A stretch of 59,269 bases of DNA from a virus (lineage: Duplodnaviria; Caudoviricetes): positions 1-59,269 of the IMG/VR virus record IMGVR_UViG_3300028581_003812; one strand, written 5' to 3'. The first letter of the stretch is position 1, and each line of letters begins with the position of its first letter. The translations under genes and the position numbers were made by a program. This document shows, in pieces, positions 1,628-41,624 of the stretch. The notes below the pieces were generated by a model. It saw only the letters and a program-made list of their open reading frames with translations, did not search any database and was not told the origin of the DNA.

Positions 1628-2527
1628 TTAATCTCCATAACTAAATCCACCGGAGTCGTATCCGCGGCGACCTGGCAGCGCTCCCGTGCCACGTAATTCA
1701 CTGGTCGGTAAATCATCTTCAGGGTATTCTTCAACAGTTTCTACTTCACCGGTACCTTCACCTTCCTTCTTCTCTGATGCAGGGGTGAAGCTGTTCTTAA
1801 ATTTTAATGAGTCAATAAAGTCTTGCACCACCTCTTTGTCGTTGGCCATGGTTTGATCATAGGCACGCGTAATGGCTTCAATTACTTCATTCTTGAGTTC
1901 AGGCGAATCATAAATGTCACCCTGTTCAATTGTTATTTCATCCGGTAGCTCCACAAATATTGGCATCCATTCCTTAATAAAACGAGTATTGGTATTTTTT
2001 AAAAATACATTTGCATTGGTTACTCCCACTGGTGCAGAAGGCGTTTCAGCTGCGCCACTTGTCAATGATTGACCAGACACACCTGCATCAATGGCTTTTT
2101 TAACTGCCACAGGGCTTGCAGAAGTACCACCCTCCATGTCCACCTTTACCACATTCAATAAATTATCAACAACTCTTGCAGTGTACTTGGCATCAGTACC
2201 ACCAAGCTTGAGCTCATTCTTGATGAGCTTCTCCAGCTCAATTCTGAATTTCATTTTTGAACCTGGATAAAACATGGAGTATTCCTTGCCATCAACTACA
2301 TGTGCCTCTGGTTTGAATAGTTTGGTTTTGATGGCCAGCAGCAAGTTGTTAGCTATTTCTGTCTTAGATTTACCATCTCTGGCTGCAGCTTTGCCAATGC
2401 CATAGCCTCCACTAGGACTTTTTTCAATATCCCCAGTGTAACCTATGTCATCCCCATAAATGGGTGCTTCCATGATGGGTTTTCTGGCATTATATGCTTC
2501 AAATATGTGTTTACAGTCATTATTCAT
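1628..2527 (-). CDS. Hypothetical late protein, possible internal head protein
   Basis: 299-aa ORF with TAAATA 7 nt upstream, N-terminal IFE/IME motifs and an acidic C-terminus. Confidence 0.55.
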   Translation of the reverse strand: MNNDCKHIFEAYNARKPIMEAPIYGDDIGYTGDIEKSPSGGYGIGKAAARDGKSKTEIANNLLLAIKTKLFKPEAHVVDGKEYSMFYPGSKMKFRIELEKLIKNELKLGGTDAKYTARVVDNLLNVVKVDMEGGTSASPVAVKKAIDAGVSGQSLTSGAAETPSAPVGVTNANVFLKNTNTRFIKEWMPIFVELPDEITIEQGDIYDSPELKNEVIEAITRAYDQTMANDKEVVQDFIDSLKFKNSFTPASEKKEGEGTGEVETVEEYPEDDLPTSELRGTGALPGRRGYDSGGFSYGD

Positions 2528-2528
2528 C

Positions 2529-2567
2529 TTGAAATATTTAATCTTTTACTTATAATAAATAGGAGGT
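2529..2567 (+). promoter_or_regulatory. Sigma70-type promoter (TTGAAA-N16-TATAAT) and Shine-Dalgarno AGGAGGT for the amidotransferase; overlaps a divergent late promoter
   Basis: TTGAAA 2529-2534, TATAAT 2551-2556, AGGAGGT 2561-2567. TATTTA at 2535-2540 is TAAATA on the minus strand. Confidence 0.7.
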
Positions 2568-2575
2568 AATATAAT

Positions 2576-3259
2576 ATTTGTGGCATATTTGGAGCTAAAG
2601 ACTTTGCGAATTACGTGAAGCTTTACAAAGAAAACAGGAAACGAGGTACGTTTTCCTATGGAGGCCTACTGATTGGCAGCAAAGTGCATGCCATACTCAA
2701 AACCCCTGGAGTCGCTAATCTTACCAACAAGCTCATCATTGAGTATGGTAAAACCAAGAGACACATAACTGATTTCAACGTTTTCTTAGGCCATACACAA
2801 GCACCTACATCTTCACAAAGAGCATTTACAGCCAAGACATCCCATCCCTTTCAGTACAAAGAGTGGATAGTTGCACACAATGGTGTACTGACAAATGACA
2901 AGGAATTAAAAAAACTCATACCAGACAAGAAGGCTTATAATGTTGTGGATTCATCTGTGATTGCACCTTTGCTGACAAAGCATCACAAGGAAACAAAAGA
3001 TGAAATTGTTGCAATCAAAAATACATGTTCCATGTTGAAGGGCACTTTTGGTCTCTGGATATACAATCAACAATCGGCCAATGTGTATCTGGCAAGGTCA
3101 GGCAGCACTCTGTTTGCTGATTATCTCAACAACATGTTTTCATCAACCAAGTACAGTGATTTTGTTGCCCTGGATGAAGGGTTAATTTACCTGTTAACCA
3201 CAGAAGGCATAACTGCTGTGGGCAAGTTTGCATCCAATTCGCCATTCTTCACATCATGA
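2576..3259 (+). CDS. Class II (Ntn) glutamine amidotransferase, ATT start
   Basis: Extending the 2615 ORF upstream gives ATT-TGT-GGC-ATA-TTT-GGA = (M)CGIFG. Other motifs are GHTQAPT, SHPF, VAHNGVLTN and VDSSVI. An in-frame TAA lies at 2567-2569. Confidence 0.85.
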   Translation: MCGIFGAKDFANYVKLYKENRKRGTFSYGGLLIGSKVHAILKTPGVANLTNKLIIEYGKTKRHITDFNVFLGHTQAPTSSQRAFTAKTSHPFQYKEWIVAHNGVLTNDKELKKLIPDKKAYNVVDSSVIAPLLTKHHKETKDEIVAIKNTCSMLKGTFGLWIYNQQSANVYLARSGSTLFADYLNNMFSSTKYSDFVALDEGLIYLLTTEGITAVGKFASNSPFFTS

Positions 3260-3936
3260 AGATAGCGTTCTATAGTGTCACAAGAAACAAGATTGAAGGC
3301 ACACCCTTTCATCGCAGTATTAATAAAATAATTAGAGCTATCCCCAATGAGCTTATAATGTATCATTACAAGGAAAACAATACTGAAGGTCTCAGCAAAT
3401 GTTACAATGCTTTTCTAAAAGAACATAGTAAATTCTATGATTATATTGTGTTTGTTCATGATGATGTGTACATAGATGATTTCAACATTCATGAAAAGCT
3501 AGAAACACATCACAAAGACTTTGATATAGTAGGATTAGCAGGTGGCATTAATCCCAAGATGCAAAAATTAGCTCTTTGGCATTTAATGTGTGGTGGCATA
3601 GGCGGTTCAAATCTGCGCGGCGCAGTTGCTCATTCAGTAAATGATAAGCAGATTTTTATGACTAGCTTTGGTCCCACACCCAGCAGGGTTACCATACTGG
3701 ATGGGTTATTTCTAAGTGTAAACACCAAACGTATTAAAGAAACAGGGTTTAAGTTTAATGAAAACTACACGTTTCATCATTATGACATTGCCAGCTGTTT
3801 GGATGCAAATAAATTAAAATTAAAATTAGGTGTTGCTCCTATTTGGGTGGTGCACAAATCTCCCGGGCTATCTAATGTTAATGATGATGTTTTTATCCAT
3901 AGTCAAGAGAAGTTCTTGCAAGAGTACAATAATTGA
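3256..3936 (+). CDS. GT-A fold (GT2-like) glycosyltransferase
   Basis: GLSKCYN, YIVFVHDDVYI (DxD-like), IVGLAG, LDGLFL and FHHYDIASCL. Confidence 0.8.
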   Translation: MKIAFYSVTRNKIEGTPFHRSINKIIRAIPNELIMYHYKENNTEGLSKCYNAFLKEHSKFYDYIVFVHDDVYIDDFNIHEKLETHHKDFDIVGLAGGINPKMQKLALWHLMCGGIGGSNLRGAVAHSVNDKQIFMTSFGPTPSRVTILDGLFLSVNTKRIKETGFKFNENYTFHHYDIASCLDANKLKLKLGVAPIWVVHKSPGLSNVNDDVFIHSQEKFLQEYNN

Positions 3937-3960
3937 TTATCTTAAACAAGATACTATCAT
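3933..3960 (+). promoter_or_regulatory. Early sigma70-type promoter for the helicase
   Basis: TTGATT 3933-3938, N16, TATCAT 3955-3960; ATG follows after a 6-nt gap. Confidence 0.6.
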
Positions 3961-3966
3961 AAGTTC

Positions 3967-5295
3967 ATGGCAAGGTTAGATCTAGATTACTTTGAAATTA
4001 TTATTGCTTTTAAGGCTCTGACAGATGAAACCTATCTGGCTTCCATTGTTGACTACTTAAAGCCAATATACTTCAAGAACAAGGATATAAAAGCCATCTT
4101 TGCCATCATATCTGACTTTTATGAAAAACGAGGCACAAAGCCAACCATAACTGAAATCAAGTCATACTTAATTACTGATGAACTCAAAACATCACTTAAA
4201 AATGTTGTCACACTCTTTAATAATGTAGATAAAAATTTTAATCTGGATGAGCTTTCAGCCAATACAGAGATATTTTTAAAAGAAAAAGCAGTTTACTACA
4301 CCATGATGGATGTAGTAGATGACATTCAGAAGAGTACTGTTGACACATCCAAAATATTAGACAAGTTTGAAAAGGCTTGTAGCCTGTCTTTAACCACAGC
4401 GGTGGGGTTGGACTTGTTCACTGACATAGACAGAGTAATTACCGATTTAAATTCTAATGAGAATTACATTCCATCTGGATGGAAATGGCTAGATGATAAA
4501 ATTGGTGGTGGGTTTCTAGAGGAAGGCAGAGCATTATATTTGTTTGCTGGTGAAACCAACATAGGCAAAAGTATTTTCCTGGGCAATGTTGCCATTAATA
4601 TTGCCAATCAAGGCAAGACAGTGTTATTGGTGTCACTTGAAATGCCTGAGTTAATTTATGCCAAACGCCTTTGTTCCAGTGTATCAAAGATACCCCTCAG
4701 TCAGTTGAAAGTAGAGTCTGAAACACTTAAAAACCAAATCAACGAATATTGTGTAGAAAAACCCAATTCAAAAATTATTATCAAAGAATTCCCACCTGCG
4801 TCCATATCTTGCAATCATTTGAAAGCATTTATTAAAAAACTAATTCAAAAAGGAATTAAAATTGATGCCATAGTTCTAGATTATGTTAATTTGCTGCACA
4901 CCTCCATAGGTGATACAAGCTATGAGCGAATTAAAATTTGCACAGAACAATTGCGTGCATTGTCTTATGAGTTTGCATGTCCAATTATTTCTGCCACACA
5001 GTTGAATAGAGATGGGTATGAAATAACTGATCCAGGATTGAAGACAATTTCTGAAAGTATAGGTCTTGCAATGACTGGTGACGTCATTTTGAGCATCTGG
5101 CAAGACGACACAGATAGAGAGCTTGGTATTATTAAAATGGGCTTCATGAAGAACAGGTTAGGACCTAATTTCGGTCATTGCTCCATGAGAATTGACTATT
5201 CCACCCTGACTATCACAGAAGACGAACATATGAATGATACAGAAGCCAGTACATCATCTATAAATACACTCTCAAAATTGTCCCTGGGCAATTGA
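3967..5295 (+). CDS. Replicative DnaB-like helicase (T4 gp41-like)
   Basis: Walker A GETNIGKS, VSLEM, IIIKEFP, IVLDYVNLL, SATQLNR, ISESIGL and KNRLG. Confidence 0.95.
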   Translation: MARLDLDYFEIIIAFKALTDETYLASIVDYLKPIYFKNKDIKAIFAIISDFYEKRGTKPTITEIKSYLITDELKTSLKNVVTLFNNVDKNFNLDELSANTEIFLKEKAVYYTMMDVVDDIQKSTVDTSKILDKFEKACSLSLTTAVGLDLFTDIDRVITDLNSNENYIPSGWKWLDDKIGGGFLEEGRALYLFAGETNIGKSIFLGNVAINIANQGKTVLLVSLEMPELIYAKRLCSSVSKIPLSQLKVESETLKNQINEYCVEKPNSKIIIKEFPPASISCNHLKAFIKKLIQKGIKIDAIVLDYVNLLHTSIGDTSYERIKICTEQLRALSYEFACPIISATQLNRDGYEITDPGLKTISESIGLAMTGDVILSIWQDDTDRELGIIKMGFMKNRLGPNFGHCSMRIDYSTLTITEDEHMNDTEASTSSINTLSKLSLGN

Positions 5296-5326
5296 TTTAT
5301 ACCATTTCTACTATAATTAGTTGTAA

Positions 5327-5611
5327 GTGAAAGGATATGATCCTACTGAACGGCTAAATGAATATGAGCAAACACATTTGTTTTTATCTTTTTGTTCGCT
5401 AATAACTCTGTTGCATACTAAAAAATTGAATTTAGCAAATGTATTTATTTTATTGCTTAAAAATAATAATGTGAGATCCTTGTTTCTAAAGTATTGTGAA
5501 TTAAGAAACGATTTTAGCGCAATAAAATTTTTCTTGCAATTTGACTCAGGACTGTATAAAAGTAAGTATGTTATGAAATTCCTAAACACACACAAAAAAA
5601 ATCTGCTATGA
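5327..5611 (+). CDS. Hypothetical protein
   Basis: 94-aa ORF with TTGATT...TATAAT upstream and an ATGA overlap with the next gene. Confidence 0.6.
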   Translation: MKGYDPTERLNEYEQTHLFLSFCSLITLLHTKKLNLANVFILLLKNNNVRSLFLKYCELRNDFSAIKFFLQFDSGLYKSKYVMKFLNTHKKNLL

Positions 5612-5814
5612 AACACAACGCAATAGTTAAACTGGATCCGAAAAAAAGTAAAGACAAGGCCTATTTTGATAGGGCTTGGAATAAATTTAATCGTGAATTC
5701 TTGAATTCTGGAGTTCTAGAAGATCTTAAATTAAAGAGGTGCTATTATAAACCCAGTGCACTCAAGAAAGTTAAGAAACAGATTGTGCGGTTCAAGTGGA
5801 AACACTTAAAGTGA
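5608..5814 (+). CDS. rpsU: Phage-encoded ribosomal protein bS21 homolog
   Basis: 68-aa basic protein. FDRAWNKFNREFLNSGVLEDLKLKRCYYKPSALKKVKK matches the bS21 pattern (ALRRFKR...GIL.E.R.R..YEKPS..RK.K). Confidence 0.8.
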   Translation: MKHNAIVKLDPKKSKDKAYFDRAWNKFNREFLNSGVLEDLKLKRCYYKPSALKKVKKQIVRFKWKHLK

Positions 5815-6452
5815 TATCTGAATACGATAAACTTGTATACAACTCATATCTAAAAACTTCTCGATCGAGAAACAAACTGCCATACAAATTTAGAAAAAAT
5901 TTTGAAAAGGTAGATGATAGAACTTTTGTACAAATTAAAAAACTGTCATCATTCTTAAAGAGATTTCCTCACATAAAAATTGATGAGTTCTTCAATGCAC
6001 CCTACAACCTGTATCCAGACGAAACATATTTTCCTATTGAATATTTTACATCTTTAAAAGCAACAAAAGCTTATACGCTATTTCAAAAGAAGAAAATTAA
6101 TGAAGATCCAGATAGCCTGGATCAGCTTCAAAATATCAAGGAATCATTGATGTTCATAAACAGCTTTTGCAGACAACAAAATATTGATCCACTCAGTTAC
6201 ATTCATCACAAAACAAACAACGAATTTTCATTTCTCATTCATCTAAAAGAGCACAAGGTGAATGTATACACTCTTCTGGGTTTTGTTAATTTTGAAAAGA
6301 ATCTCAAGACAAGAGATGCAGGAGTTGCAAAATTTATCATAGGTGAAGATGTCTATAATAACATTCAAAATTACAGAACACGTCTGTTTAATTCTCACAA
6401 AGCTGTTCGTCTGGTTGAGCTGGGTATCAAGAAAATTTCAAATAGTTCTTGA
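5811..6452 (+). CDS. Putative helicase loader (T4 gp59-like)
   Basis: About 213 aa, basic and aromatic-rich, immediately upstream of gp32 as in T4-like genomes. GTG 5811 overlaps the bS21 stop. The call rests mostly on size and synteny. Confidence 0.45.
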   Translation: MISEYDKLVYNSYLKTSRSRNKLPYKFRKNFEKVDDRTFVQIKKLSSFLKRFPHIKIDEFFNAPYNLYPDETYFPIEYFTSLKATKAYTLFQKKKINEDPDSLDQLQNIKESLMFINSFCRQQNIDPLSYIHHKTNNEFSFLIHLKEHKVNVYTLLGFVNFEKNLKTRDAGVAKFIIGEDVYNNIQNYRTRLFNSHKAVRLVELGIKKISNSS

Positions 6453-6483
6453 TTTATTCAACAAAGCCATTATTATAATAAAT

Positions 6484-7338
6484 ATGAGTACATTTACCAC
6501 ATCAATGTTTGAGAGTATCAAAGGCGCACTAACCAAGGACAACGGACCCACTGCTTCCAAGATCAAGGATTATCTTCGATGCGAGGTTGGTAATACTTAT
6601 ACTGTAAGATTGCTGCCTAACGTTAAGGATCCGTCCAAAACGTTTTTTCATTATTATTCCTATGGGTGGAACAGTCTTACAACTGGCCAGCTTGTCACTG
6701 CCATAAGCCCCACCACATGGAATCAGCGTGATCCTATTGCAGAAGAGCGCTTTCGTGTGCTTCGCAATGGAACTGACAAGGAAAAGGAAAAGGCTCTTGC
6801 CATCAAGCGTCGTGAAAATTGGATGGTAAACATATTTGTAATCAATGATCCAGTTAATCCGGATAACAACAACAAAACCAAGGTGCTTCGATTTGGTCGA
6901 CAACTGCACAAGATCATCATGGATGCCATAGAAGGTGAAGAAGCAGAAGATCTGGGCCCTCGTATTTTTGATCTGTCACCCAAAGGATGCAACCTGCGTA
7001 TCAAAGTGGAAAAGCAAGGTGATTATCCCACATATGTGTCTTCTAAGTTCTCCACACCAAAAGAAATTGAAGGTCTTGACGAAGATTCCTATAACAAGAT
7101 TTATAGTGGTGCTTATGATTTGGAATCATATGTCTCAGTCAAGAGTTATGATGAGCTGAAAGGATTACTGGATGCTCATTATCATTGCACTAAGGATGTT
7201 GAAGATAGTGAAGTAATCACTACCAAAACATCAGCTCCTACACCAGTGGTTGAAGTGGTTGCAATTAAAAAGCCAGCAGCTGCAAAAACCACAGCTGAAG
7301 AAGATGACTCCATCAGTGAACTGTTAAAAGACTTATAA
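6484..7338 (+). CDS. Single-stranded DNA-binding protein (T4 gp32-like)
   Basis: VRLLP, FFHYYSYGW, IFVINDPVNPDNNNKTKVLRFG, IFDL..GCNLRIK, YPTYVSSKF and an acidic tail. Start moved to ATG 6484, behind TTGATT-N16-TATTAT (6449-6476). Confidence 0.92.
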   Translation: MSTFTTSMFESIKGALTKDNGPTASKIKDYLRCEVGNTYTVRLLPNVKDPSKTFFHYYSYGWNSLTTGQLVTAISPTTWNQRDPIAEERFRVLRNGTDKEKEKALAIKRRENWMVNIFVINDPVNPDNNNKTKVLRFGRQLHKIIMDAIEGEEAEDLGPRIFDLSPKGCNLRIKVEKQGDYPTYVSSKFSTPKEIEGLDEDSYNKIYSGAYDLESYVSVKSYDELKGLLDAHYHCTKDVEDSEVITTKTSAPTPVVEVVAIKKPAAAKTTAEEDDSISELLKDL

Positions 7339-7748
7339 TGGATACATTTGAAGAGCTGTCGTCTGAAGACCTAAAGATGACAGCTCTGCAGTTCATAGGG
7401 CAAAACCTCTCTGGCCCCTTAAAAGAGCTGGACAGCTTTATAATCAGTAAAAATCCGACTCTTCAAGGTAAAACACTGGACCCGCATAGGATTATCAATT
7501 CAATTCCCGGGTTAATGCAATCCCCTGTTGCAACAAATGTGGTTAATGCAGGTGTAAATGTGCAACAACACCCCGTGCAGCAGCAGTACATCAACCCACA
7601 TGTGGTTGTTGAAACTTTTCAAAAAGATGACAATCAATTGGAATTTGATTTTGAAAAAAAAGCTCGGTATTCAGATATCTTAGATGCACTTGTTGATATT
7701 AAAACAAAACTCTCTCGCATTGAAGATAGATTAGGAAACAAAGATTGA
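7338..7748 (+). CDS. Hypothetical protein
   Basis: 136-aa ORF coupled to the gp32 stop (TAATG), with a Gln/Pro-rich middle. Confidence 0.6.
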   Translation: MDTFEELSSEDLKMTALQFIGQNLSGPLKELDSFIISKNPTLQGKTLDPHRIINSIPGLMQSPVATNVVNAGVNVQQHPVQQQYINPHVVVETFQKDDNQLEFDFEKKARYSDILDALVDIKTKLSRIEDRLGNKD

Positions 7749-7779
7749 TATTCTCATCTAAGAGGTTATTATAAATACA

Positions 7780-8511
7780 ATGACCCTTAGCATTGCCAAC
7801 AAAGATAACTTTTTAAATAATTTTCTTTCTCCCTTAAGCAAGATAACAGACAGTGCTGTCATTAATGTCAATCCAGGCAAAATTACATCACTCATTTCCA
7901 CTAGTGATAACACCATCATTGTGGATAGCAATTATTCAGATGATAAGATCGATGCAATAAAGACACTCAACATACCTGATTTAAAAAAGTTATCTCGTGT
8001 AATAAGCTGCATTGAAGAGCAGAGTTTTAGTTTGGATATATCATCTAATTTTATTGGGTACTCGTCTAACAATGTTCGCTTCAAATACCATTTGTATGAT
8101 GATGGAATCATAAGTTCACCAAAGCTCAATGTAGAAAAGCTCAAGTCTTTTTCATTTGATGGAAGCTTCACCCTGCCGTATGCAGCTGTGGTTAATCTTG
8201 TCAAAGGCAGCTCCATTAGTACTGAAACTAATAAAATCTATATATCTGTTAAAGACAAGCTAGTTGTTGGTGAGCTCACTGATAAAACAAGGGCCAATAT
8301 AGACTCTTATGGTATTCAAGTTGCAGATAATTATGATGGGACGCAGTTTGCCACAGCTATACCGTTGAATTTCGAGATATTTAGAATAATTTCTTCTATG
8401 AGATTCAAAGAGCTGCACACACAATTAATAACTAAGATGGGAGTGCTCACATTCGACTTAACACTTGACAATGCTCAATTTAAGTTCGTCATATCAGCAC
8501 TGGCAAATTAA
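7780..8511 (+). CDS. DNA polymerase sliding clamp (T4 gp45-like)
   Basis: 243 aa with a clamp-like alpha/beta pattern (LNIPDLKKLSRVIS, VRFKYHL). Replication context, with promoter TTGATA-N16-TATTAT at 7745-7772. Confidence 0.7.
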   Translation: MTLSIANKDNFLNNFLSPLSKITDSAVINVNPGKITSLISTSDNTIIVDSNYSDDKIDAIKTLNIPDLKKLSRVISCIEEQSFSLDISSNFIGYSSNNVRFKYHLYDDGIISSPKLNVEKLKSFSFDGSFTLPYAAVVNLVKGSSISTETNKIYISVKDKLVVGELTDKTRANIDSYGIQVADNYDGTQFATAIPLNFEIFRIISSMRFKELHTQLITKMGVLTFDLTLDNAQFKFVISALAN

Positions 8512-8888
8512 TGAGCAGAAATAAACTAAGAACAGCTGGTTACTTCATTAAGCGATTGCGCGATAACGGTTTCATTGTTATCAAACTCTTTGGTGTGTAT
8601 GCAAAGGATGACCCCCGTATTTGGACCATCATGGTCAATCCAAGTGAAGCTTCCATGTTAATCACATGTTACTTTAATAAAGAAAATATAAATGAAATTC
8701 TCTTTGAAATACATGATGGTGGCAAGAGGGTGCCAAAGAATTTTTTCATAAGAACTGATAGCATAGAGGTGATAATAGATTACTTGTTAAAACATGGTGT
8801 TACCAACAACATATATTATCACGGCCGTGATAGATACATGTCCAAAAGATTAAATATTTATGATGAAAGACAAGAAACCTCAAAATAA
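8511..8888 (+). CDS. Hypothetical protein
   Basis: 125-aa ORF translationally coupled to the clamp gene. Confidence 0.6.
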   Translation: MSRNKLRTAGYFIKRLRDNGFIVIKLFGVYAKDDPRIWTIMVNPSEASMLITCYFNKENINEILFEIHDGGKRVPKNFFIRTDSIEVIIDYLLKHGVTNNIYYHGRDRYMSKRLNIYDERQETSK

Positions 8889-9183
8889 CAAAGAGAGCTT
8901 TGATCCCAATGCAAATAAGGATGTCAAAGAGCTCACGCACAAAGCACTTGTTTCATTTCTCAAAGATCAATTAAAAGATAAAGCTTCTAATAAAACTGAT
9001 TTGGATGTGCTCAGTGTACAGATCAGTGAGTTCTTAAATTCATTTATTTTGATTGGATACACTTTGCAAGGGGAGCCAGTATCTATGATATCAGCTCACA
9101 ATCAACAGGAAGCAGACAGCTTGGGGACACTGCTGAATAAGTTCATGTTCAACAGTAATAATAAAGATTTTCCTGGAGAATAA
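8863..9183 (+). CDS. Hypothetical protein
   Basis: ORF with TAAATA at 8851-8856; starts at ATG 8860 or 8863. Confidence 0.55.
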   Translation: MKDKKPQNNKESFDPNANKDVKELTHKALVSFLKDQLKDKASNKTDLDVLSVQISEFLNSFILIGYTLQGEPVSMISAHNQQEADSLGTLLNKFMFNSNNKDFPGE

Positions 9184-9207
9184 CTCTCCTTAGTATAAAC
9201 TATTGTA

Positions 9208-10101
9208 GTGACTAACATACTAATTCTTGGCAACGGGTACGTCGGCAAGCATCTCTACAATCATTTGTCAAAAAATAATAATTTGCATGTGTCCATAGTG
9301 GGCAAGAATGATGTAAATTATTTTGACCAAATAGCTTTAAAGAAATACATACGTGAAATGTACAATCTATTTCACAATGTTGCTGACGATTTTATTATTT
9401 TAAATTGTTCAGGGTTCACAGGCAGACCCAATGTTGATGAATGTGAAATTAAAAAAGAGTTATGCTTGAAATACAATACAGAGCTGCCTGTGTTCTTAAG
9501 CAATTTTTGCAAGAGAAACAAGTTGTGGCTCATAAATGTTTCCAGCGGCTGCATTTACAACGGTTATGAGAAAGATTTTACAGAACTGGATGTGCCTAAT
9601 TTTGGCATGTACAGTAATGCAAGCAGCTTTTATTCCAAGTGCAAACATTTGAATGAAATTTTAGTAAACAGCGATGTGACTACCAATTTAAGAATAAGAA
9701 TGCCATTTTGCTCTTATAATTCTGATAGAAATATAATTTGTAAAATTTTACAATATGACAATTTAATTAGTTATGATAACAGTTTAACCAGCTTAGAAGA
9801 CTTCAGTGTTTTTATTGAAACATTTATAAACAATCTGCATTACAGAAACAATCCTGGCATTTATAATGTAGTAAATCCAGGCAGAGTCAGTTCCAAACAA
9901 ATCGTGCAACTCCTTTCTTCTAATAATTTAATTAATAAGAATTGGAACTTTGTTGATTTAAAAGACATTAAAACAAAAGCAAATCGTTCCAATTGTGTGT
10001 TGTCAGATGCTAAAATAGCAGACATGGGGCTGCAGCTACCACCAGCAATGGCATCACTGGAATCAAGCATAAAGGAGTTGGCAAATGAACTTGGTAATTA
10101 A
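9208..10101 (+). CDS. NAD(P)-dependent nucleotide-sugar epimerase/reductase (RmlD-like, NDP-rhamnose 3,5-epimerase/4-reductase type)
   Basis: ILILGNGYVG Rossmann motif, GFTGRPNVDECE, SSGCIY, catalytic YSKCK and LRIRMP. Confidence 0.85.
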   Translation: MTNILILGNGYVGKHLYNHLSKNNNLHVSIVGKNDVNYFDQIALKKYIREMYNLFHNVADDFIILNCSGFTGRPNVDECEIKKELCLKYNTELPVFLSNFCKRNKLWLINVSSGCIYNGYEKDFTELDVPNFGMYSNASSFYSKCKHLNEILVNSDVTTNLRIRMPFCSYNSDRNIICKILQYDNLISYDNSLTSLEDFSVFIETFINNLHYRNNPGIYNVVNPGRVSSKQIVQLLSSNNLINKNWNFVDLKDIKTKANRSNCVLSDAKIADMGLQLPPAMASLESSIKELANELGN

Positions 10102-10459
10102 ATTAAAATTATTCTTAAAGAACTTTTTCGCAAAAAAACATCCCTGCGCACGGTATGTTTATGCCATAACTGGTGGTGTATTCTTGGGTGAGATGTTCAC
10201 CCTGATGGAAAAAAATAAATCTTCCAGAGAATATGTCTTCTTATCTTTACCTGATATGCATCATAGAACTGTTTCTTATGAAAAATTTAAATTTGGAATA
10301 GAGAATAAAATCATAGATATTGTCAAGAGAATACCCAAGGATGTGTACAACACGTGCAAAAAGCAATATGCGGCCAATTTAAAAGCAGTTAAAACCTCCT
10401 CTAGTGTTTCTATTGGCAAGATGATGAGCAGTGGAAAACCAGCTGAAAAGGATAAATAA
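10085..10459 (+). CDS. Hypothetical protein
   Basis: 124-aa ORF overlapping the end of the previous gene. Confidence 0.55.
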   Translation: MNLVIKLKLFLKNFFAKKHPCARYVYAITGGVFLGEMFTLMEKNKSSREYVFLSLPDMHHRTVSYEKFKFGIENKIIDIVKRIPKDVYNTCKKQYAANLKAVKTSSSVSIGKMMSSGKPAEKDK

Positions 10460-10463
10460 CATT

Positions 10464-10646
10464 ATGGACTTCATTGACCCCAAACCCATCACATCACCTA
10501 TCAGCGGTCACTTGGTAAGGCCTGTTCTGAAGACATACATCAGAGGAGACAAGGTAATTGTGGAAGCTGAGTACATTGACCCCGCTTCTGGTACGTTCAT
10601 CCGCAAGGGTGTAGTGTCTGCAGAAGACGTAAAAAAGAACAACTAG
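10464..10646 (+). CDS. Small hypothetical late protein
   Basis: TAAATA at 10453-10458 lies 5 nt before ATG 10464 (MDFIDPKPITSP...). Confidence 0.6.
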   Translation: MDFIDPKPITSPISGHLVRPVLKTYIRGDKVIVEAEYIDPASGTFIRKGVVSAEDVKKNN

Positions 10647-10683
10647 TTCTTGTTTTTTTATTTGGATCAGTTATAATAAGCAC

Positions 10684-11715
10684 GTGCTAGTACCGCAAGA
10701 ATACATACTGCAAAAATTTTATCAGTACGCTGGCTATCCAAAATTCAAGCGTCAAAGCAACACATACATGGCCGGTTGCCCCATATGCAGAGAAGGCAAA
10801 TCGTGGCTCAAGAAGAGAAGGTGCATATATGTTGTGGATGATAATATTGTCTGTTGTCACAATTGTGGGTGGTACAGCGACACAATCAAATGGATACAAG
10901 AGGCATCTGGTCTAACATTCAACGAGATACTACATGAATCCAGAGAGTTCGACATTCTACCTTTGGAACAATTGCAACAAACACATGAACTGCCCAGAAA
11001 AATTAACATGGAACGACTGCCTGTTGATTCAATCAACATTTTTGATGCCAATCAGGTGCAGTATTACAGAGACGACAAGACAGTTCAAGCCGCACTTGAA
11101 TTAATGAAGATGCGCAAGATGGATAAAGCGGTGAATCGACCAGATACATTGTGGGTGTCTCTGAAGGATAAAGTGCATAAAAATCGTATCATCATACCTT
11201 TCTATGATGCAAATAATGAAATCATATTCTATCAATCACGCTTAATTTTTGATAAAGATGCAAAGTTCTACCCCAAATATCTCAGCAAGATAAATGGCGA
11301 AAAATCGCTTTATAATATTAACAAAATATGCAACGACTTGGATTACATTTTTATTTTTGAAGGACCCATTGATGCATTTTTCGTAAAGAATGGCACAGCA
11401 GTAGCTGGTATTCAGGAAACTAGCAGCAACACCTTTTCAAAACTGCAGCAAGATCAATTGCAGTCATTTAAATTTTTTAAGAAGATTTGGGTATTGGACA
11501 GTCAGTGGAGAGACAAGGCAAGCAAAAGCAAAACAAAGAAGCTTATTCAGAGTGGTGAGTGTGTGTTCATCTGGCCTGAGGACATGGGCAAGCAATACAA
11601 AGATATCAATGATTATTGCATGGATAAAAACGTATGTAGCATTGACCCAAATTTTTTCATTAATAATAGTTTTGAAGAGATCAAAGCCAACTTGGCTTTA
11701 TCTGTCGTTCGATGA
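10684..11715 (+). CDS. DNA primase (T4 gp61-like)
   Basis: Zn finger CPIC...CHNCG, RIIIPFYD, FYQSR, TOPRIM FEGPIDAFF, VLD and KDIND. Promoter TTGTTT-N16-TATAAT at 10650-10677. Confidence 0.95.
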   Translation: MLVPQEYILQKFYQYAGYPKFKRQSNTYMAGCPICREGKSWLKKRRCIYVVDDNIVCCHNCGWYSDTIKWIQEASGLTFNEILHESREFDILPLEQLQQTHELPRKINMERLPVDSINIFDANQVQYYRDDKTVQAALELMKMRKMDKAVNRPDTLWVSLKDKVHKNRIIIPFYDANNEIIFYQSRLIFDKDAKFYPKYLSKINGEKSLYNINKICNDLDYIFIFEGPIDAFFVKNGTAVAGIQETSSNTFSKLQQDQLQSFKFFKKIWVLDSQWRDKASKSKTKKLIQSGECVFIWPEDMGKQYKDINDYCMDKNVCSIDPNFFINNSFEEIKANLALSVVR

Positions 11716-12111
11716 AATCAAATAACCCTTGAGTGATTCACTCAGGGAACTCAATTCTGCTGCAAGACGTGCAATCTTCTTTTTCTCACTGCGAGCAATG
11801 TCCTCAAAAATTGAATCACAAGGAGCAGCATGCAGCTGCACTTGCATGGAACCTTGATCTGTGCCATTCAAAAATTTTATAAATTCATCAATTCTACCCA
11901 CCCATTCTTGCAATTTTTGACCTTGTTCAGCTTTTACATTGTCAACAAGCTTCTCACGACCTGGACTTTGCACATCAAAATCTTCAGGCTTGGCAGTGTT
12001 CAGTGTCTGTGCCATGGCTTGTCTGTCTGTTTCAGGGGCAGCTACTGGTGCTGCTGCAGGCGCTTCATCAGCTTCTAATACCAGGCCAAAAGTACGTTCA
12101 AACAGATTCAT
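11698..12111 (-). CDS. Hypothetical late protein, possible head protein
   Basis: TATAAATA 5 nt upstream; N-terminal LFE/VLE motifs. Confidence 0.6.
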   Translation of the reverse strand: MNLFERTFGLVLEADEAPAAAPVAAPETDRQAMAQTLNTAKPEDFDVQSPGREKLVDNVKAEQGQKLQEWVGRIDEFIKFLNGTDQGSMQVQLHAAPCDSIFEDIARSEKKKIARLAAELSSLSESLKGYLISSNDR

Positions 12112-12143
12112 AATAATATTTATATCAAACCATAAATAATTTA
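12112..12143. promoter_or_regulatory. Back-to-back divergent late promoters
   Basis: TATTTA at 12117-12122 (minus-strand TAAATA) and TAAATA at 12133-12138, each 5 nt from a start codon. Confidence 0.75.
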
Positions 12144-12527
12144 GTGAAAAACAAGGTTTTGTTTGAGGATTTTACCAATTATTACAACAAATGGACATCT
12201 GGCATGGCTTCCAGGGAACTTGGCGCACAACGAGTTACCCTGAAGGATTTATTCGATAAAACAGTGGATCAACATCCCAATGATGTAAGAGTAGAAAAGC
12301 CCCATCCTTTCCCTCTGCCCAGTGTCATAGAGCAATTGGGGGAATTGTATCTCAATGCTGGCAACTCCAAAGCTTTGTTTCAATCTTCATTGACCAACCC
12401 TTTGATCAGTCAAAACAAAAATGCCAAATTGGCCGTGGAAATCATTGTAAAAAAATTGGACAATATTCTCAAAGAGCTTAACAGCATAATTGATGTGGCC
12501 AAGAAACCTGTTGCAAAGCGCTTGTGA
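12144..12527 (+). CDS. Hypothetical late protein
   Basis: GTG start 5 nt after TAAATA; N-terminal VLFED. Confidence 0.6.
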   Translation: MKNKVLFEDFTNYYNKWTSGMASRELGAQRVTLKDLFDKTVDQHPNDVRVEKPHPFPLPSVIEQLGELYLNAGNSKALFQSSLTNPLISQNKNAKLAVEIIVKKLDNILKELNSIIDVAKKPVAKRL

Positions 12528-13693: not shown

Positions 13694-13929
13694 ATCCTAA
13701 TCCTAAATTGGGCATCAGGGACAAACGCTTCATGCCTGGCCAAGCTTATTCTTTATTTAACATTAGAAAAGCTGGAGACAAGGTCACATATGTTTTTGTT
13801 GACCAAATGCGTCAAAAGACAGAAGTAGAATTTAATTCTTGCAGAGATGCTGATCAGTTTATTTGCAAATTAAAAAATGAAAGAATTCCTGATTACAGTA
13901 TTAGACCCGAAGAACCGGCTTTAACCTAA
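13660..13929 (+). CDS. Hypothetical protein
   Basis: 89-aa ORF continuing the plus-strand block. Confidence 0.55.
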   Translation: MHYIIGTSFVVNPNPKLGIRDKRFMPGQAYSLFNIRKAGDKVTYVFVDQMRQKTEVEFNSCRDADQFICKLKNERIPDYSIRPEEPALT

Positions 13930-14865
13930 AAGATATCCGTAAAATACACTTTGGTTATCTATAATATAGTTTTTGTTATCTGATGCACCAAAGCCTAAAG
14001 TGATTTTATCACCTGCATTTAAAGCGATTAATTGATGCCAATTTGTAGCAACTGCAGTCCCTCCTAAACTGGATGATATGTTGTGCATTAAACCAGGCAG
14101 AGCACCTTGTGAATCTCCAGATTTAGTAGTCTCAATATAACCTACACCATTAATCATAACCATAGGATACATATAATGAGTTGGCAAGGTGTCGAGTCTG
14201 AGCATACCGGAAAAACTATATACCCCTGCAACTGGTGCAGTGAACTCACTGTTTGCTGCATTGTAGTAGTTCCCATTGTTGAGAATTACACGAGGAAAAC
14301 TAATCTTAGGATAATTAGTAAGTTCGCCTAAATTTAAAATATTTAATGTTTGAGTCTCGGCTTTTACAGCAAAAGCGGGCTGAAAAGGTTTAGTAACTAC
14401 ACCAGATGAACTTATGGTCATTCTAGGCACCGCAGAATTAACTGCAAATTGTGTGTTGTTGGTACAGAAATGAAATGTACCAGTGTTACCTACATAATTT
14501 TTAACAATGATGCTGCCCATGACACTGCCTTTTTCCGTGAAATTAATTCTTGGCTCACTGAAATTGAAAGATGTGCCTCTCAATTCTAGCAAAGGAGCAT
14601 TTTTTGTGTTGAGATCAGAACCATCAGAACCCAGATAATCTTTATTTGCATCATCAGCCATAATGAAAGAAGCACTGGTTGCAGCAGTAATCAGATGTTG
14701 AAAAGAAGTTACACTATCATTTGAAGAATTAAAATACACTTTGGAGGTTTTTTGAAATATGGCGCTTACAGGTGCACCCAGGGTATTGGAACCGGTACTG
14801 TAGGGCAACAAGCTATTACCTGCAGGTGTTCCTTGTGTCAATTGAGATATGGTTACGTCTGCCAT
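13921..14865 (-). CDS. Virion fibre protein with C-terminal C1q/TNF-like domain (MADVTISQL family)
   Basis: C1q signature PAFAV...ISFPRVILNNGNYYN....FTAPVAGVYSF...LNAGDKI...SVFYGYLLG. Confidence 0.85.
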   Translation of the reverse strand: MADVTISQLTQGTPAGNSLLPYSTGSNTLGAPVSAIFQKTSKVYFNSSNDSVTSFQHLITAATSASFIMADDANKDYLGSDGSDLNTKNAPLLELRGTSFNFSEPRINFTEKGSVMGSIIVKNYVGNTGTFHFCTNNTQFAVNSAVPRMTISSSGVVTKPFQPAFAVKAETQTLNILNLGELTNYPKISFPRVILNNGNYYNAANSEFTAPVAGVYSFSGMLRLDTLPTHYMYPMVMINGVGYIETTKSGDSQGALPGLMHNISSSLGGTAVATNWHQLIALNAGDKITLGFGASDNKNYIIDNQSVFYGYLLG

Positions 14866-16914: not shown

Positions 16915-16934
16915 ATTAAGTATTTAATAGATGT

Positions 16935-18644
16935 ATGCCTAAAAAACTAGAAAACAAGTATTATTTGGGTAATGAGAGCTTGCCTTCTGCAGAGTCTTTG
17001 TTTGATTATTCAGAGCATCCTGAGTGGGTACTGGACATAGCCAAGTGCAGAAAGAACATATTGTATTTTGCAGAGAATTTTTTCTTCATAACAAATCTGG
17101 ATGAAGGCAAGATGAAGATCAAGCTGCATAGCTATCAAAAAAGAATTTTAAGAAGTTTGCGAGACAGCAGATTTGTTTGTCTGTTGGCTTCACGACAGAT
17201 AGGCAAGACCACATTGATGACCATATATGCATTGTGGATTGCATGTTTCTTTGAAGACCAACGCATATTGGTGGTGGCCAACAAAGAGCAAACTGCCATT
17301 AACATTTTCAAAAGAATCAGAATGGCTTATGAAAAACTGCCCAACTACTTGAAACCTGGCACAGTGGAATATGGCAAAACTGCCATGTCTCTAGGCAATG
17401 GGAGCAGCATTGGCATTTCCACCACCAGCAGTGATGCAGGTCGAGGTGACAGTTGCAACATCCTCATTCTGGATGAGCTGGCTTTCATTGACAATCATCT
17501 GGTGGAACAGTTCTGGAGTTCTGTGTATCCAATCATTTCATCGTCCAAGAAGTCCAAGATATTTGTTGCGTCAACGCCAAATGGTACTGGCAATCTGTTT
17601 CATGATTTGTACTCTGGAGCCATTGATGGTAAAAATGACTGGAAAGCAGAAAAGGTGGATTGGTGGGAATTTCCAGGCAGAGATGAAGCATGGAAAGACA
17701 AAACCATTCGCACTCTGGGAAGCAGAGAAGTTTTTGATCAAGAGTTTGGCAATGTGTTTTTGGAAACAGGTGAGAGTGCTTTGGATGAAAAATTATTTGA
17801 AGAAATGAAATCTGAATGCATTGAACCCAAATTTATTTTCAATGAAGGCAAATATTTGCTGTGGGATGAACCAAAGAATGACCATCTGTATGTGGTGGGT
17901 GTGGACATAAGTGAAGGCATTGGTGAAGCTGCAAGTGTCATACAGATCATGGATATCACAGATTTGAGAGAAATAAAACAAGTGGCCTGTTATCATGATC
18001 GCCAAATTAGCCCTTATAATTTCACTGCCAAATTGCATGAAATATTGCAACATTGGGGGTCACCTCTGGCCATGATAGAAAGAAACAACTGCGGTTCACA
18101 AGTGGTGGACCAACTCAAGAATACCCATGCTTATGAAAACATTGTTTCTTATGGCATTAAATCTGGCCCTGCTTCATACAGTAAAATTGGTGTGCAAGCC
18201 CATACCAACACCAAGTACAAGGGCGTCATGAACATGCGCTATTGGATGAACGAAGTCAAAGCATTAAAAGTGCATGATTTGAAGACTTTGAATGAACTGA
18301 AAAACTTTGTCAGATACCCAAATGGCACTTGGGGTGCAAAACCTGGTTCAGACAACTGGGATGACAGGGTGATGAGCTTGATGTGGGCACTCATCATCCT
18401 GGAGAATGATTTGGTAGAAAAATATTTCGAAGTAGTACAATATGATAAGAACAAGAAGCCGTTAAAATTAAAAGCCTTGGATTACGGTGTTAAATATTTT
18501 ATTAATCCCACATCCATGTATTCAAATGAAAAAATGGGTGCAGATGGTCTGCCACCATTGCCCATTGTCATCTCACAAGATGGTAATGAGGAACATAATG
18601 AAATAGCTGACTTAGAATCGCAAGGTTACCGCCATTTATCATAA
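16935..18644 (+). CDS. Terminase large subunit (T4 gp17-like)
   Basis: LHSYQK, ASRQIGKTT, LILDELAFI, ASTPNG, FDQEF, GVDISEG, IERNN and DDRVMSL. Confidence 0.97.
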   Translation: MPKKLENKYYLGNESLPSAESLFDYSEHPEWVLDIAKCRKNILYFAENFFFITNLDEGKMKIKLHSYQKRILRSLRDSRFVCLLASRQIGKTTLMTIYALWIACFFEDQRILVVANKEQTAINIFKRIRMAYEKLPNYLKPGTVEYGKTAMSLGNGSSIGISTTSSDAGRGDSCNILILDELAFIDNHLVEQFWSSVYPIISSSKKSKIFVASTPNGTGNLFHDLYSGAIDGKNDWKAEKVDWWEFPGRDEAWKDKTIRTLGSREVFDQEFGNVFLETGESALDEKLFEEMKSECIEPKFIFNEGKYLLWDEPKNDHLYVVGVDISEGIGEAASVIQIMDITDLREIKQVACYHDRQISPYNFTAKLHEILQHWGSPLAMIERNNCGSQVVDQLKNTHAYENIVSYGIKSGPASYSKIGVQAHTNTKYKGVMNMRYWMNEVKALKVHDLKTLNELKNFVRYPNGTWGAKPGSDNWDDRVMSLMWALIILENDLVEKYFEVVQYDKNKKPLKLKALDYGVKYFINPTSMYSNEKMGADGLPPLPIVISQDGNEEHNEIADLESQGYRHLS

Positions 18645-18652
18645 ATAATTAA

Positions 18653-19756
18653 ATGGCAGATATATCAATATCTCAAATAAGTCAAGGAACTCCCACTACA
18701 GGCATTGTTGTCCCGTGGTCCGACGGTGCATCCACATATCAAGCACAACTCAGTTCCTTACTTACTGCTACTGGTGATATTGGCACTGCAGCCATACAGA
18801 TACCCAAAGGTACTACAAGTCAAAGACCAGCTTCTTCTGCAAACGGGATGTTGCGTATGAATACAACAACTAACTCCTTAGAAGCATACTATGACAATAA
18901 CTGGATAACAATTTCTTCATTACTACCATACACAATTTATCTCTGGGGTGCAGGTGGTGGCGGCGGAACTGCTGGCGGCTGGGGATACGGCGCTGCAGGA
19001 GGTGGCGGTGGATTTGCCTCAGGTGATATAAACCTACCGGCAGGGACTGCCTTAACACTTGTGGTAGGGCAAGGTGGAATAGTGAACGGCACATCTGTTT
19101 CATTTGGAGGAGGCGGCCAAGCTAATAGGAATAATGTAGATAACCGCTACGGGTCCAATGGTGGAGGGTACACAGGCATATTTTTAAATTCTGTCACACA
19201 AGCCAATTGCGTACTCATTGCAGGTGGCGGTGGTGGTGGTGGTTCCTCAAGAACAGGTGTAGGTAATTATGGTGGTGCAGGAGGTGGTGCACAAGCACAA
19301 GATGGTAATTCACCATATGATAATAAACCTGGGTACAGAGGCAGAGGCGCTGGCCAATCCGGTGCACCAGCACAAGCATCATGTGACGGCCTTAACACGA
19401 ACTTCCCACCTGCAGCTCTGATAGGTGGAACCTGTCAAAATAACGGTTATGGTGGAGCAGGTGGAGGTGGATATTTCGGTGGATCAGCTGGTGGATTTTT
19501 TGAAAGCAATACAATGGGTGGTGGAGGTGGGGGTTCAGGATACGTAAATTCACAATACATTCTTAATTCAGTCAATACTGCAGGGACTAATTCTCAAGGT
19601 GCAGGTAGCACTAATATATATTATACCAGCAGTGTCGGTACAGGAGGAGCACCCTCCACAGCAGGGCAAAACGGGTATGCTGTTCTAGTGAATAGAATCA
19701 CTGGTCAGATATCAAGTTATTATTACACCGGCAGCAACATAACAATAACACTTTAA
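18653..19756 (+). CDS. Glycine-rich fibre/adhesin protein (MADISISQI family)
   Basis: Shared N-terminal anchor, the fibre motif IPKGTTSQRP...GMLRMNTTTNSLEAY...W, then a polyglycine domain (LWGAGGGGG, LIAGGGGGGG). Confidence 0.8.
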   Translation: MADISISQISQGTPTTGIVVPWSDGASTYQAQLSSLLTATGDIGTAAIQIPKGTTSQRPASSANGMLRMNTTTNSLEAYYDNNWITISSLLPYTIYLWGAGGGGGTAGGWGYGAAGGGGGFASGDINLPAGTALTLVVGQGGIVNGTSVSFGGGGQANRNNVDNRYGSNGGGYTGIFLNSVTQANCVLIAGGGGGGGSSRTGVGNYGGAGGGAQAQDGNSPYDNKPGYRGRGAGQSGAPAQASCDGLNTNFPPAALIGGTCQNNGYGGAGGGGYFGGSAGGFFESNTMGGGGGGSGYVNSQYILNSVNTAGTNSQGAGSTNIYYTSSVGTGGAPSTAGQNGYAVLVNRITGQISSYYYTGSNITITL

Positions 19757-20383: not shown

Positions 20384-20424
20384 GAATTTTTAAAAGTTTG
20401 ATCGGAAAAACATAAATATTTTAT

Positions 20425-25823: not shown

Positions 25824-25847
25824 TAGTATTTTTCCTTAAATATATTA

Positions 25848-41616: not shown

Positions 41617-41624
41617 ATACTTTA

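Follow-up and report, generated by a model that had tools for sequence, protein, structure and literature searches.

The locus described here raises the question of whether a phage that encodes its own small ribosomal protein bS21, in a genome that barely uses Shine-Dalgarno (SD) sequences, changes which mRNAs are chosen by the ribosomes of its host. bS21 is the commonest virus-encoded ribosomal protein, and its function there is still a hypothesis. The gene in question (S21) is an open reading frame (ORF) of 68 amino acids (aa) at 5608-5814 on the plus strand, with an ATG start and a TGA stop, in a stretch of 59,269 nucleotides (nt) that covers positions 1 to 59,269 of IMG/VR record IMGVR_UViG_3300028581_003812 (Duplodnaviria; Caudoviricetes), called the window below. 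An initial annotation of the window had suggested that this bS21 variant may bias host ribosomes away from SD-led host mRNAs and towards leaderless phage mRNAs. Considering the results of the present analysis, we propose, with a probability of roughly 0.55, that the protein, probably expressed in the early or middle period and coupled to its neighbours, binds the host 30S subunit and shifts initiation to phage mRNAs that lack an SD and probably also a leader.

The ORF matched PF01165 (Ribosomal_S21) in Pfam at 30.3 bits, above the gathering cut-off of 27 (E = 3.5e-7), with ORF residues 20-58 aligned on positions 10-48 of the 55 in the profile. It scored 29.5 bits in a six-frame search of the whole record with PF01165 and matched PHROG 21469, 'ribosomal protein S21', at E = 2e-4. 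In a single-sequence search of the PDB, all 35 matches at E ≤ 1 were bS21 chains from bacteria, plastids and mitochondria, headed by 9i5v_9 (E = 9e-4) and 7jil_z (E = 1.8e-3), both of Bacteroidota type; a profile of 24 family members found 32 matches at E ≤ 0.01, bS21 in every case, with 5myj_AU (1.1e-6) the best. Alignments to solved chains displayed the bS21 core F/Y-D-x-A-hxxF-[KN]-R ... G-h-h-x-E-h-[RK] ... [YF]-x-K-P-[ST], with a basic tail after it, and F20, F27, P49 and S50 were unchanged across 59 family sequences. An AlphaFold2 model of the protein, with these 59 sequences as input, contained three helices at a predicted local distance difference test score (pLDDT) of 88.6. Foldseek ranked chlororibosome bS21 chains first and second (5mmj_u, template modelling scores 0.61/0.63, E 0.9), and in the VIA comparison the sole chain at Z ≥ 5 among 48,161 was chlororibosome bS21 28jw_u (Z 5.7, root-mean-square deviation 3.8, 63 residues aligned). 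The bS21-like ORF that had been proposed at this position was thus borne out by the ORF call and by the PF01165, PHROG and PDB matches; judged by its sequence, the product is a bS21 homologue, though no typical cellular rpsU product.

Relatives were found in virus and protein collections. All 18 candidates in a set of 5.8 billion proteins were related at E ≤ 4e-17, with 62-99% identity, and a representative set of 1.84 billion gave seven matches at E ≤ 1e-3, one of which, the 752-aa repeat protein P0024, was discarded because its match was of low complexity. In IMG/VR, 81 stretches encoded a relative, and 80 were kept as loci, on contigs of up to 229,717 bp; these comprise group A (51/80), in a replication module, and group B (29/80), in a structural module. 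No match to the protein was found among 50,697 deposited phage records at E ≤ 1e-3, module DNA had no match in the deposited phage records, and a pattern scan based on the family alignment over 185,579 species genomes matched 36 stretches, none of them a relative. For 45 distinct coding sequences with the gene order of the window, the median ratio of nonsynonymous to synonymous change (dN/dS) was 0.23 in the 144 pairs that were usable out of 990; synonymous sites were saturated (median pS 0.81, pN 0.29). The database relatives, the 81 IMG/VR stretches and the dN/dS of 0.23 thus make the gene more than a chance ORF: it is real and under purifying selection in this virus lineage.

Two parts of the protein set the family apart. 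The initial annotation had quoted a divergent N-terminal region (residues 7-19, VKLDPKKSKDKAY) and an aromatic C-terminus (residues 61-68, RFKWKHLK), and database alignments and tail counts confirmed both as family-specific. The stretch before the first helix, read by eye from alignments, exceeded that of cellular bS21 by about five residues and was richer in Lys. The hallmark of the family was a basic tail ending K-W-[KR]-[FYH]-[YL]. With positions counted from the K-P-S motif (KPS), Trp occupied KPS+14 in 58/58 phage tree sequences and in 24/24 database homologues, in which, as an unfiltered set, K63 and W64 were invariant; an aromatic residue stood at +16 in 52/58 and Tyr at +17 in 46/58 of the tree sequences. 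At KPS+12, the cellular groups had Lys or Arg, or Tyr in 8/8 Bacteroidota (equivalent to Tyr54 of Flavobacterium johnsoniae), while group A sequences (n = 45) mostly had Asn (23), Leu (8) or Phe (7, the residue of the window protein) and group B sequences (n = 13) had no aromatic residue. The phage clade thus lacked the Bacteroidia signature Tyr at this position. It also lacked the weakly basic C-terminal region of the Bacteroidia type, the first 18 residues of the tail having a median net charge of +7 in group A and +6 in group B, whereas Bacteroidota have +3.5 and the remaining groups +7 to +8. As a separate observation, the loci L039 (6001-6168), L040 and L050 (2637-2804) formed an S21 subclade with T-P-S where the others have K-P-S; the ORF filter required K-W near the end, and these three were thus left out before alignment.

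The relation to cellular bS21 was assessed with two panels, one from a degenerate motif scan (80 loci giving 79 sequences after L117, which had no start, was dropped) and one from a search of 401 Pseudomonadota genomes with the family profile, from which the best 30 of 307 matches were taken. These matches came from 307/401 genomes, reached 36.3 bits at best and included no close relative. Median scores to the family profile were 33.2 bits in Bacillota, 31.6 in Bacteroidota, 30.2 in Beta- and 30.0 in Gammaproteobacteria, and the best single score, 41.1 bits, came from a Gemmatimonadota sequence. A maximum likelihood tree of 159 distinct rows and few columns (78) was built by a quick search with SH-like approximate likelihood ratio test (SH-aLRT) support only; its panel was biased by the search motif, had no rows labelled Cyanobacteria or Alphaproteobacteria, and carried labels taken from record titles and sequence type. 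In this tree, the 58 unique phage sequences all fell into one clade (SH-aLRT 100), the 13 structural-module sequences into one sub-clade of it (99) and the eight Bacteroidota bS21 into a clade of their own (100), and the phage clade was as distant from each cellular group as the cellular groups were from one another. Neither the tree nor the profile scores grouped phage bS21 with Bacteroidota. Within this sampling, the phage clade thus appears to be virus-only, about equally far from all sampled cellular bS21 and not Bacteroidota-like, and the expectation that S21 phylogeny would hint at the host was not borne out, with profile scores alike across groups and the phage clade separate. Three side observations concern the panels: one Gemmatimonadaceae genome (G009:C3) has two bS21 paralogues (381386-381529 and 1049499-1049624) scoring 41.6 and 39.5 bits against the phage profile, the highest among cellular sequences; L095, a 3.4-kb contig titled as a Pelagibacter metagenome-assembled genome, carries a Flavobacteriia-type rpsU with a strong SD; and L104, a contig titled Bacteroides, carries a Lachnospiraceae-type rpsU. 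The latter two are probably mis-binned.

The phage gene occurs in two genomic contexts. Group A loci share synteny, with helicase identities of 57-93% and the order glutamine amidotransferase (GATase), glycosyltransferase, helicase, ORF94, S21, ORF218, gp32, ORF136, ORF243, ORF125 and, further on, primase. Group B loci have none of the group A neighbours; in L059, S21 has portal, sheath-stabiliser and tail-fibre genes as neighbours. The record that contains L059, G411 (229,717 bp, CheckV 100%), is from the phage lineage of the window, with a helicase 56% identical, an ORF94 homologue 45% identical, and homologues of ORF218, gp32, ORF243 and ORF125 downstream of the slot that S21 takes in group A. 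In G411 this slot (L235, G411:C1:144000-153500, minus strand 6317-7030) holds an unrelated ORF of 238 aa that overlaps both neighbours and has no Pfam family. Because G411 holds an unrelated ORF there and S21 elsewhere, the ORF94-ORF218 slot is a cassette site, and S21 has changed place in this lineage. The sequence TAAATA lay 2-10 nt before the S21 start in 28/29 structural-module copies versus 4/48 replication-module copies. The S21 gene of the window, having no late motif and being coupled to its neighbours in the replication block, fits early or middle expression.

The signals before the start codons in the window bear directly on the mRNAs that such a ribosome would meet. A core SD 4-mer preceded 7/58 crude ORFs, against 6.9% of 2000 random positions, and 7/59 curated genes, against 2.7 expected, bearing out the statement that this genome barely uses SD initiation. 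At the S21 start no SD was found upstream (predicted duplex energy +2.2 kcal/mol), and a weak SD-like 4-mer occurred before S21 in 8/48 group A loci; the phage gene thus lacks the very strong SD that is an autoregulation trait of Bacteroidia. TAAATA was found 3-9 nt (mode 5, 10 cases) before the start of 18/59 genes, versus 0.3-0.4 expected, for example at 18642-18655, 20413-20427, 25837-25850 and 41614-41627 on the plus strand and at 2528-2545 and 16915-16931 on the minus strand. The T4 late motif is placed at -13 to -6 (PMC1524935), so that with a 5-nt spacer +1 would fall on the A of ATG. Sigma70-like promoters (TTGAtt, 16-17 nt, TAtnAT) ended 6-7 nt before the ATG of the helicase, gp32 and ORF243, and both hexamers were conserved in about 40 distinct related sequences. 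The nearest well-formed one upstream of S21 is the putative promoter TTGATT-N16-TATCAT at 3933-3960 (+), which ends 6 nt before the helicase ATG. Those of gp32 (6449-6483, +; TTGATT at 6449 and TATTAT at 6471, hexamers conserved) and ORF243 (7745-7779; conserved in about 40 related loci) lie downstream of S21. An uncertain second candidate with a short 14-nt spacer between TTGATT and TATAAT (5292-5317, +) lies 9 nt before the GTG of ORF94, near the conserved non-coding blocks GATTT and ATAATTAG. Furthermore, 21/59 genes start within 3 nt of the preceding gene or overlap it. From this promoter geometry, late and early/middle phage mRNAs are predicted to be leaderless; of the leaderless architecture described earlier, the abutting TAAATA and sigma70-like motifs thus stood, with the transcripts themselves a prediction from sequence alone.

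The only well-placed full SD in the window belongs to the class-II GATase gene (2576-3259, +; N-terminus CGIFG, ATT start at 2576), which follows a divergent promoter region (2529-2578) with TTGAAA-N16-TATAAT and then AGGAGGT at 2561-2567 before the ATT. In 21/29 aligned loci [AG]GGAGG was kept together with ATT, and in the other 8/29 the start was ATG with no SD, 5-6 nt after the -10. The conserved AGGAGGT thus implies a usable anti-SD.

In the window, S21 lies between the genes for a DnaB/gp41-like replicative helicase (3967-5295, +; PF03796, E = 2.6e-26; phrog_19, E = 5.8e-70) and a gp32-like single-strand DNA-binding protein (6484-7338, +, true start 6484; PF08804, E = 1e-15; phrog_224, E = 1.1e-39), in agreement with the position first reported. 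The 312 nt between helicase and S21, which had been taken as a spacer, proved to be coding: an alignment of 24 loci with three-periodic conservation revealed ORF94 (5327-5611, +, GTG start), a conserved 94-aa helical protein with a homologue in 47/48 group A loci with an identified S21 and 21 invariant columns in 41 sequences. Its AlphaFold2 model had six helices (pLDDT 86.4); no family was found in Pfam, PHROGs or NCBIfam, Foldseek returned no rows, and the best VIA Z was 4.5. The sequence TTTAAAC/T upstream of S21 was rejected as a promoter element, being ORF94 coding sequence in the 24-locus alignment, and ORF94 was rejected as an S21-specific partner, given its lack of a fold match and its place beside an unrelated ORF in G411. 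The ORF94 stop overlaps the S21 start in ATGA (5608-5611, +), a predicted termination-reinitiation junction; among the 48 group A loci the overlap was exactly 4 nt in 32, longer in 13 and replaced by a 1-3 nt gap in 2, and 1 lay at a contig edge. The S21 stop in turn overlaps the start of the next gene in GTGA (5811-5814, +), with NTGA or TAATG at this junction in most group A loci. That next gene, ORF218/213 (5811-6452, +), encodes a conserved replication-module protein with 37-79% identity in the group A loci reaching that far, and the 213-aa product from GTG 5811 corresponds letter for letter to an entry in the ESM Atlas. Pfam and PHROGs gave no family for it at E ≤ 1, nor did NCBIfam at E ≤ 0.01. 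The label 'gp59' given to it earlier is thus unsupported by these collections, and what fits a helicase loader is its size (213 aa) and its position between helicase and gp32.

We propose the following scenario for replication-module S21. The replication block would be transcribed from sigma70-type promoters abutting start codons, in the early or middle period, and S21 would be translated by ribosomes that re-initiate after ORF94. The basic 68-aa product may then occupy, on the platform of the 30S subunit, the bS21 site next to the 16S rRNA 3' end, filling bS21-free ribosomes or exchanging with the host protein; substitution of phage bS21 into host ribosomes is a published model (PMC9723584). 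The Lys-rich N-terminal stretch and the K-W-[KR]-[FYH]-[YL] tail would lie at the contacts of bS21 with the anti-SD and with the mRNA upstream of the start. These family-specific parts may change which mRNAs initiate well, in favour of phage mRNAs that have no SD and probably no leader. Both the incorporation into ribosomes and the bias to leaderless mRNA are what we infer. The C-terminal region of bS21 is described as touching the 16S 3' tail, and its loss as altering mRNA selectivity; in F. johnsoniae, this region and Tyr54 keep the 16S 3' tail away, and ribosomes without bS21 or its tail are faster on strong-SD mRNA and slower on SD-less mRNA (PMC7797042, PMC9976891). In E. coli, bS21 is reported to support the anti-SD in the exit path (PMC10491246). 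A bolder version, which we regard as speculative and rather improbable, is that the Trp/aromatic basic tail pulls the anti-SD from the exit path of an SD-competent host, so that SD-led host initiation would be turned off early while leaderless and re-initiated phage messages would continue. SD competence of the host is suggested by the conserved AGGAGGT before the one ATT-started phage gene, and, if this version is true, the phage would bring both a leaderless genome design and a ribosome part favouring leaderless initiation.

Several points weigh against the proposed shift of initiation. E. coli ribosomes without uS2 and bS21 are reported to translate the leaderless lambda cI mRNA better (PMC10491246); adding bS21 is thus of no obvious help to leaderless mRNAs. 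The tails of L039, L040 and L050 end K-R-R-F-A/T, without the Trp. On identity, the profile check suggested by the initial annotation was positive with PF01165 and negative with the NCBIfam rpsU equivalog TIGR00030, at 23 bits against a cut-off of 28.95 (E = 5.1e-5). In absolute terms, the structural scores given above (Foldseek E 0.9; Z 5.7) are low, and they are weak for a small helical protein, as is expected at 68 residues. On timing, the same bS21 clade occupies 29 structural-module loci, 28/29 of them with the late-type TAAATA, so early timing is not essential, and G411 keeps S21 in the structural module, so that neither timing nor ORF94 is tied to S21. The suggestion that a place in the replication operon means early expression is thus supported by the missing late motif and the overlapping genes and is weakened by the structural-module copies. 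Moreover, the 20 sequencing runs listed with window positions 2400-12200 were DNA or untyped, with no RNA run.

The alternative that survives best, though we consider it unlikely, is plain supplementation, in which phage bS21 tops up a protein that assembles late, binds loosely and is often sub-stoichiometric, leaving more ribosomes whole and working during infection, without preference for phage mRNAs. F. johnsoniae is described as having a bS21-less ribosome subpopulation that is poorer on SD-less mRNAs (PMC9976891), bS21 is a tertiary binding protein (PMC10491246), and the phage core aligns with cellular bS21 of all sampled phyla at similar scores of 25-41 bits. A mere supplement, however, should have remained similar to the host protein, whereas this clade is as far from each cellular group as these groups are from each other, keeps Trp at +14 throughout (58/58), the cellular groups all having K, R or Y at +12, and has the longer Lys-rich N-terminal stretch that, by eye, is absent from the sampled cellular bS21.

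Less probable still is a Bacteroidota host with a hidden anti-SD, in which phage bS21 would replace that of the host, escape rpsU autoregulation and lower host bS21 synthesis, as modelled by Chen et al. (2022). The escape would follow from the lack, in the phage gene, of the strong SD of host rpsU, and strong SDs did precede the Bacteroidota rpsU genes of the panel. The promoters conserved here are, however, canonical TTGAnn/TAtnAT, unlike the Bacteroidota consensus TTTG/TAnnTTTG, and 21/29 loci keep the perfect AGGAGGT ahead of an ATT start; these two features, read from the DNA, argue against a Bacteroidota host, although the genome at large is SD-less as this alternative would have it. Two Bacteroidota-type chains (9i5v_9 and 7jil_z) head the single-sequence PDB ranking, but the family profile puts 7jil 18th of 32 matches and the tree gives Bacteroidota bS21 a clade of its own (support 100). 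The window protein has Phe at the Tyr54 position, whereas +12 is mostly Asn in the clade and the tail charge is +6 to +7 against +3.5 in Bacteroidota. In the Atlas, most feature neighbours of ORF218 bear Bacteroidota labels (score 0.92), which is a lead only.

Least probable of all is an extraribosomal role as a basic RNA-binding regulator of translation or replication or as an RNA chaperone in the replication module, for although S21 lies among replication genes to which it is coupled, scores below the rpsU equivalog cut-off and has a precedent in a non-ribosomal ribonucleoprotein reported to contain bS21 (PMC12054373), the same clade in structural modules at 29 loci leaves no tie to replication, the slot in G411 holds unrelated cargo, and what is conserved is the core by which bS21 binds the ribosome.

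The proposed change in mRNA choice by host ribosomes can be set beside known systems. As described by Chen et al. (2022; PMC9723584), phage bS21 genes from large freshwater lake phages predicted to infect Bacteroidetes resemble the window gene in N-terminal divergence with a kept binding core, in aromatics near the C-terminus and in the proposed substitution into host ribosomes favouring phage mRNAs. Their gene, however, is found on the reverse strand in a group of TerL, portal, protease and capsid genes and is expressed late, whereas the window gene is in the replication module, co-oriented and overlapping, with no late motif; their proteins are nearest Flavobacteriia bS21, an affinity that the window clade lacks; and a helicase is given near bS21 in only 30/900 phages of their survey (PMC9723584). 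The 29 structural-module loci may overlap their set, the two having been compared by description only. Pelagibacter phage HTVC008M (Mizuno et al., 2019) likewise has a bS21 gene in a T4-like myovirus, and its bS21 enters E. coli ribosomes in vivo, as cited in PMC9976891. The window clade is not close to it, with 0/50,697 deposited records matching at E ≤ 1e-3, a set in which the presence of HTVC008M was not checked.

The cellular bS21 of F. johnsoniae, which is also small, has an aromatic residue in a C-terminal region beside the 16S 3' tail, and SD-less mRNAs do better than strong-SD mRNAs when the protein is present (PMC7797042, PMC9976891); it serves as a working model for what the aromatic tail could do. 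F. johnsoniae and other Bacteroidia combine Tyr at KPS+12, a weakly basic tail and a very strong SD on the gene, whereas the window clade combines Trp at +14, aromatics at +16 and +17, a strongly basic tail and a gene without SD. In Francisella tularensis, alternative bS21 proteins in one cell are linked to differing mRNA preferences (PMC9578407, PMC13374519), these being cellular paralogues, unlike the viral gene here, set apart by description only. Phage bS21 genes and the idea of selective translation are thus already known. New here are a divergent virus-only bS21 clade with a Trp/aromatic tail, a bS21 gene in a coupled cassette slot of a replication module, its contrast with late-motif copies in the same lineage, and the co-occurrence of phage bS21 with promoter-abutting start codons. 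Among the titles and abstract openings covered by a literature search, none linked phage-encoded bS21 with leaderless phage mRNAs and none described T4-type late motifs abutting start codons.

The window record (G000) is a linear IMG/VR record, estimated by CheckV to be 26% complete. It represents a fragment of an uncultured myovirus and includes TerL, sheath, tape measure and baseplate genes, and the lineage is one of large T4-like lake myoviruses; the 20 listed runs holding 2400-12200 were mostly labelled lake water or freshwater metagenomes. The nearest isolates were Sinorhizobium phage phiM9 by TerL (39%) and cyanophages by helicase (31%). Regarding the host, psbA (PF00124) was absent from five related records including the complete G411; Por_Secre_tail (PF18962) was also absent from five related records, uninformatively, given that control genomes likewise had no match; and G002, classed 'provirus', ended in phage genes on either side, with no flanking host DNA.

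Other genes were noted in passing. A QueC fragment (3-344; PF06508, E = 2.2e-25) occurs in the window alongside the GATase gene, and genes of the QueC and GATase types serve 7-deazaguanine DNA modification in other phages. Three proteins encoded among or beside structural genes are a BspA-type leucine-rich repeat protein (336-1427, -; PF13306, E = 5e-53), a C1q-domain protein (13921-14865, -) and an ALK/LTK glycine-rich-domain protein (18653-19756, +), the last adjoining TerL. In the related locus L082 (G002:C1:1-20000), two adjacent genes with LCIB/C beta-carbonic-anhydrase domains (3288-5335, minus strand; PF18599, E = 8e-26 and 1e-29) form an unusual auxiliary pair.

The family offers a natural contrast, in which one viral bS21 lineage is found either in an early coupled slot or behind a late motif, and this contrast is set in genomes with almost no SD motifs and with promoters abutting start codons. 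The conserved Trp/aromatic tail provides a mutational handle. If the phage protein only tops up ribosomes, it would be an ordinary auxiliary gene. If it alters the choice among SD-led, SD-less and leaderless mRNAs, the virus would reprogram initiation by swapping one ribosomal protein, and the finding would bear on how bS21 positions the anti-SD.

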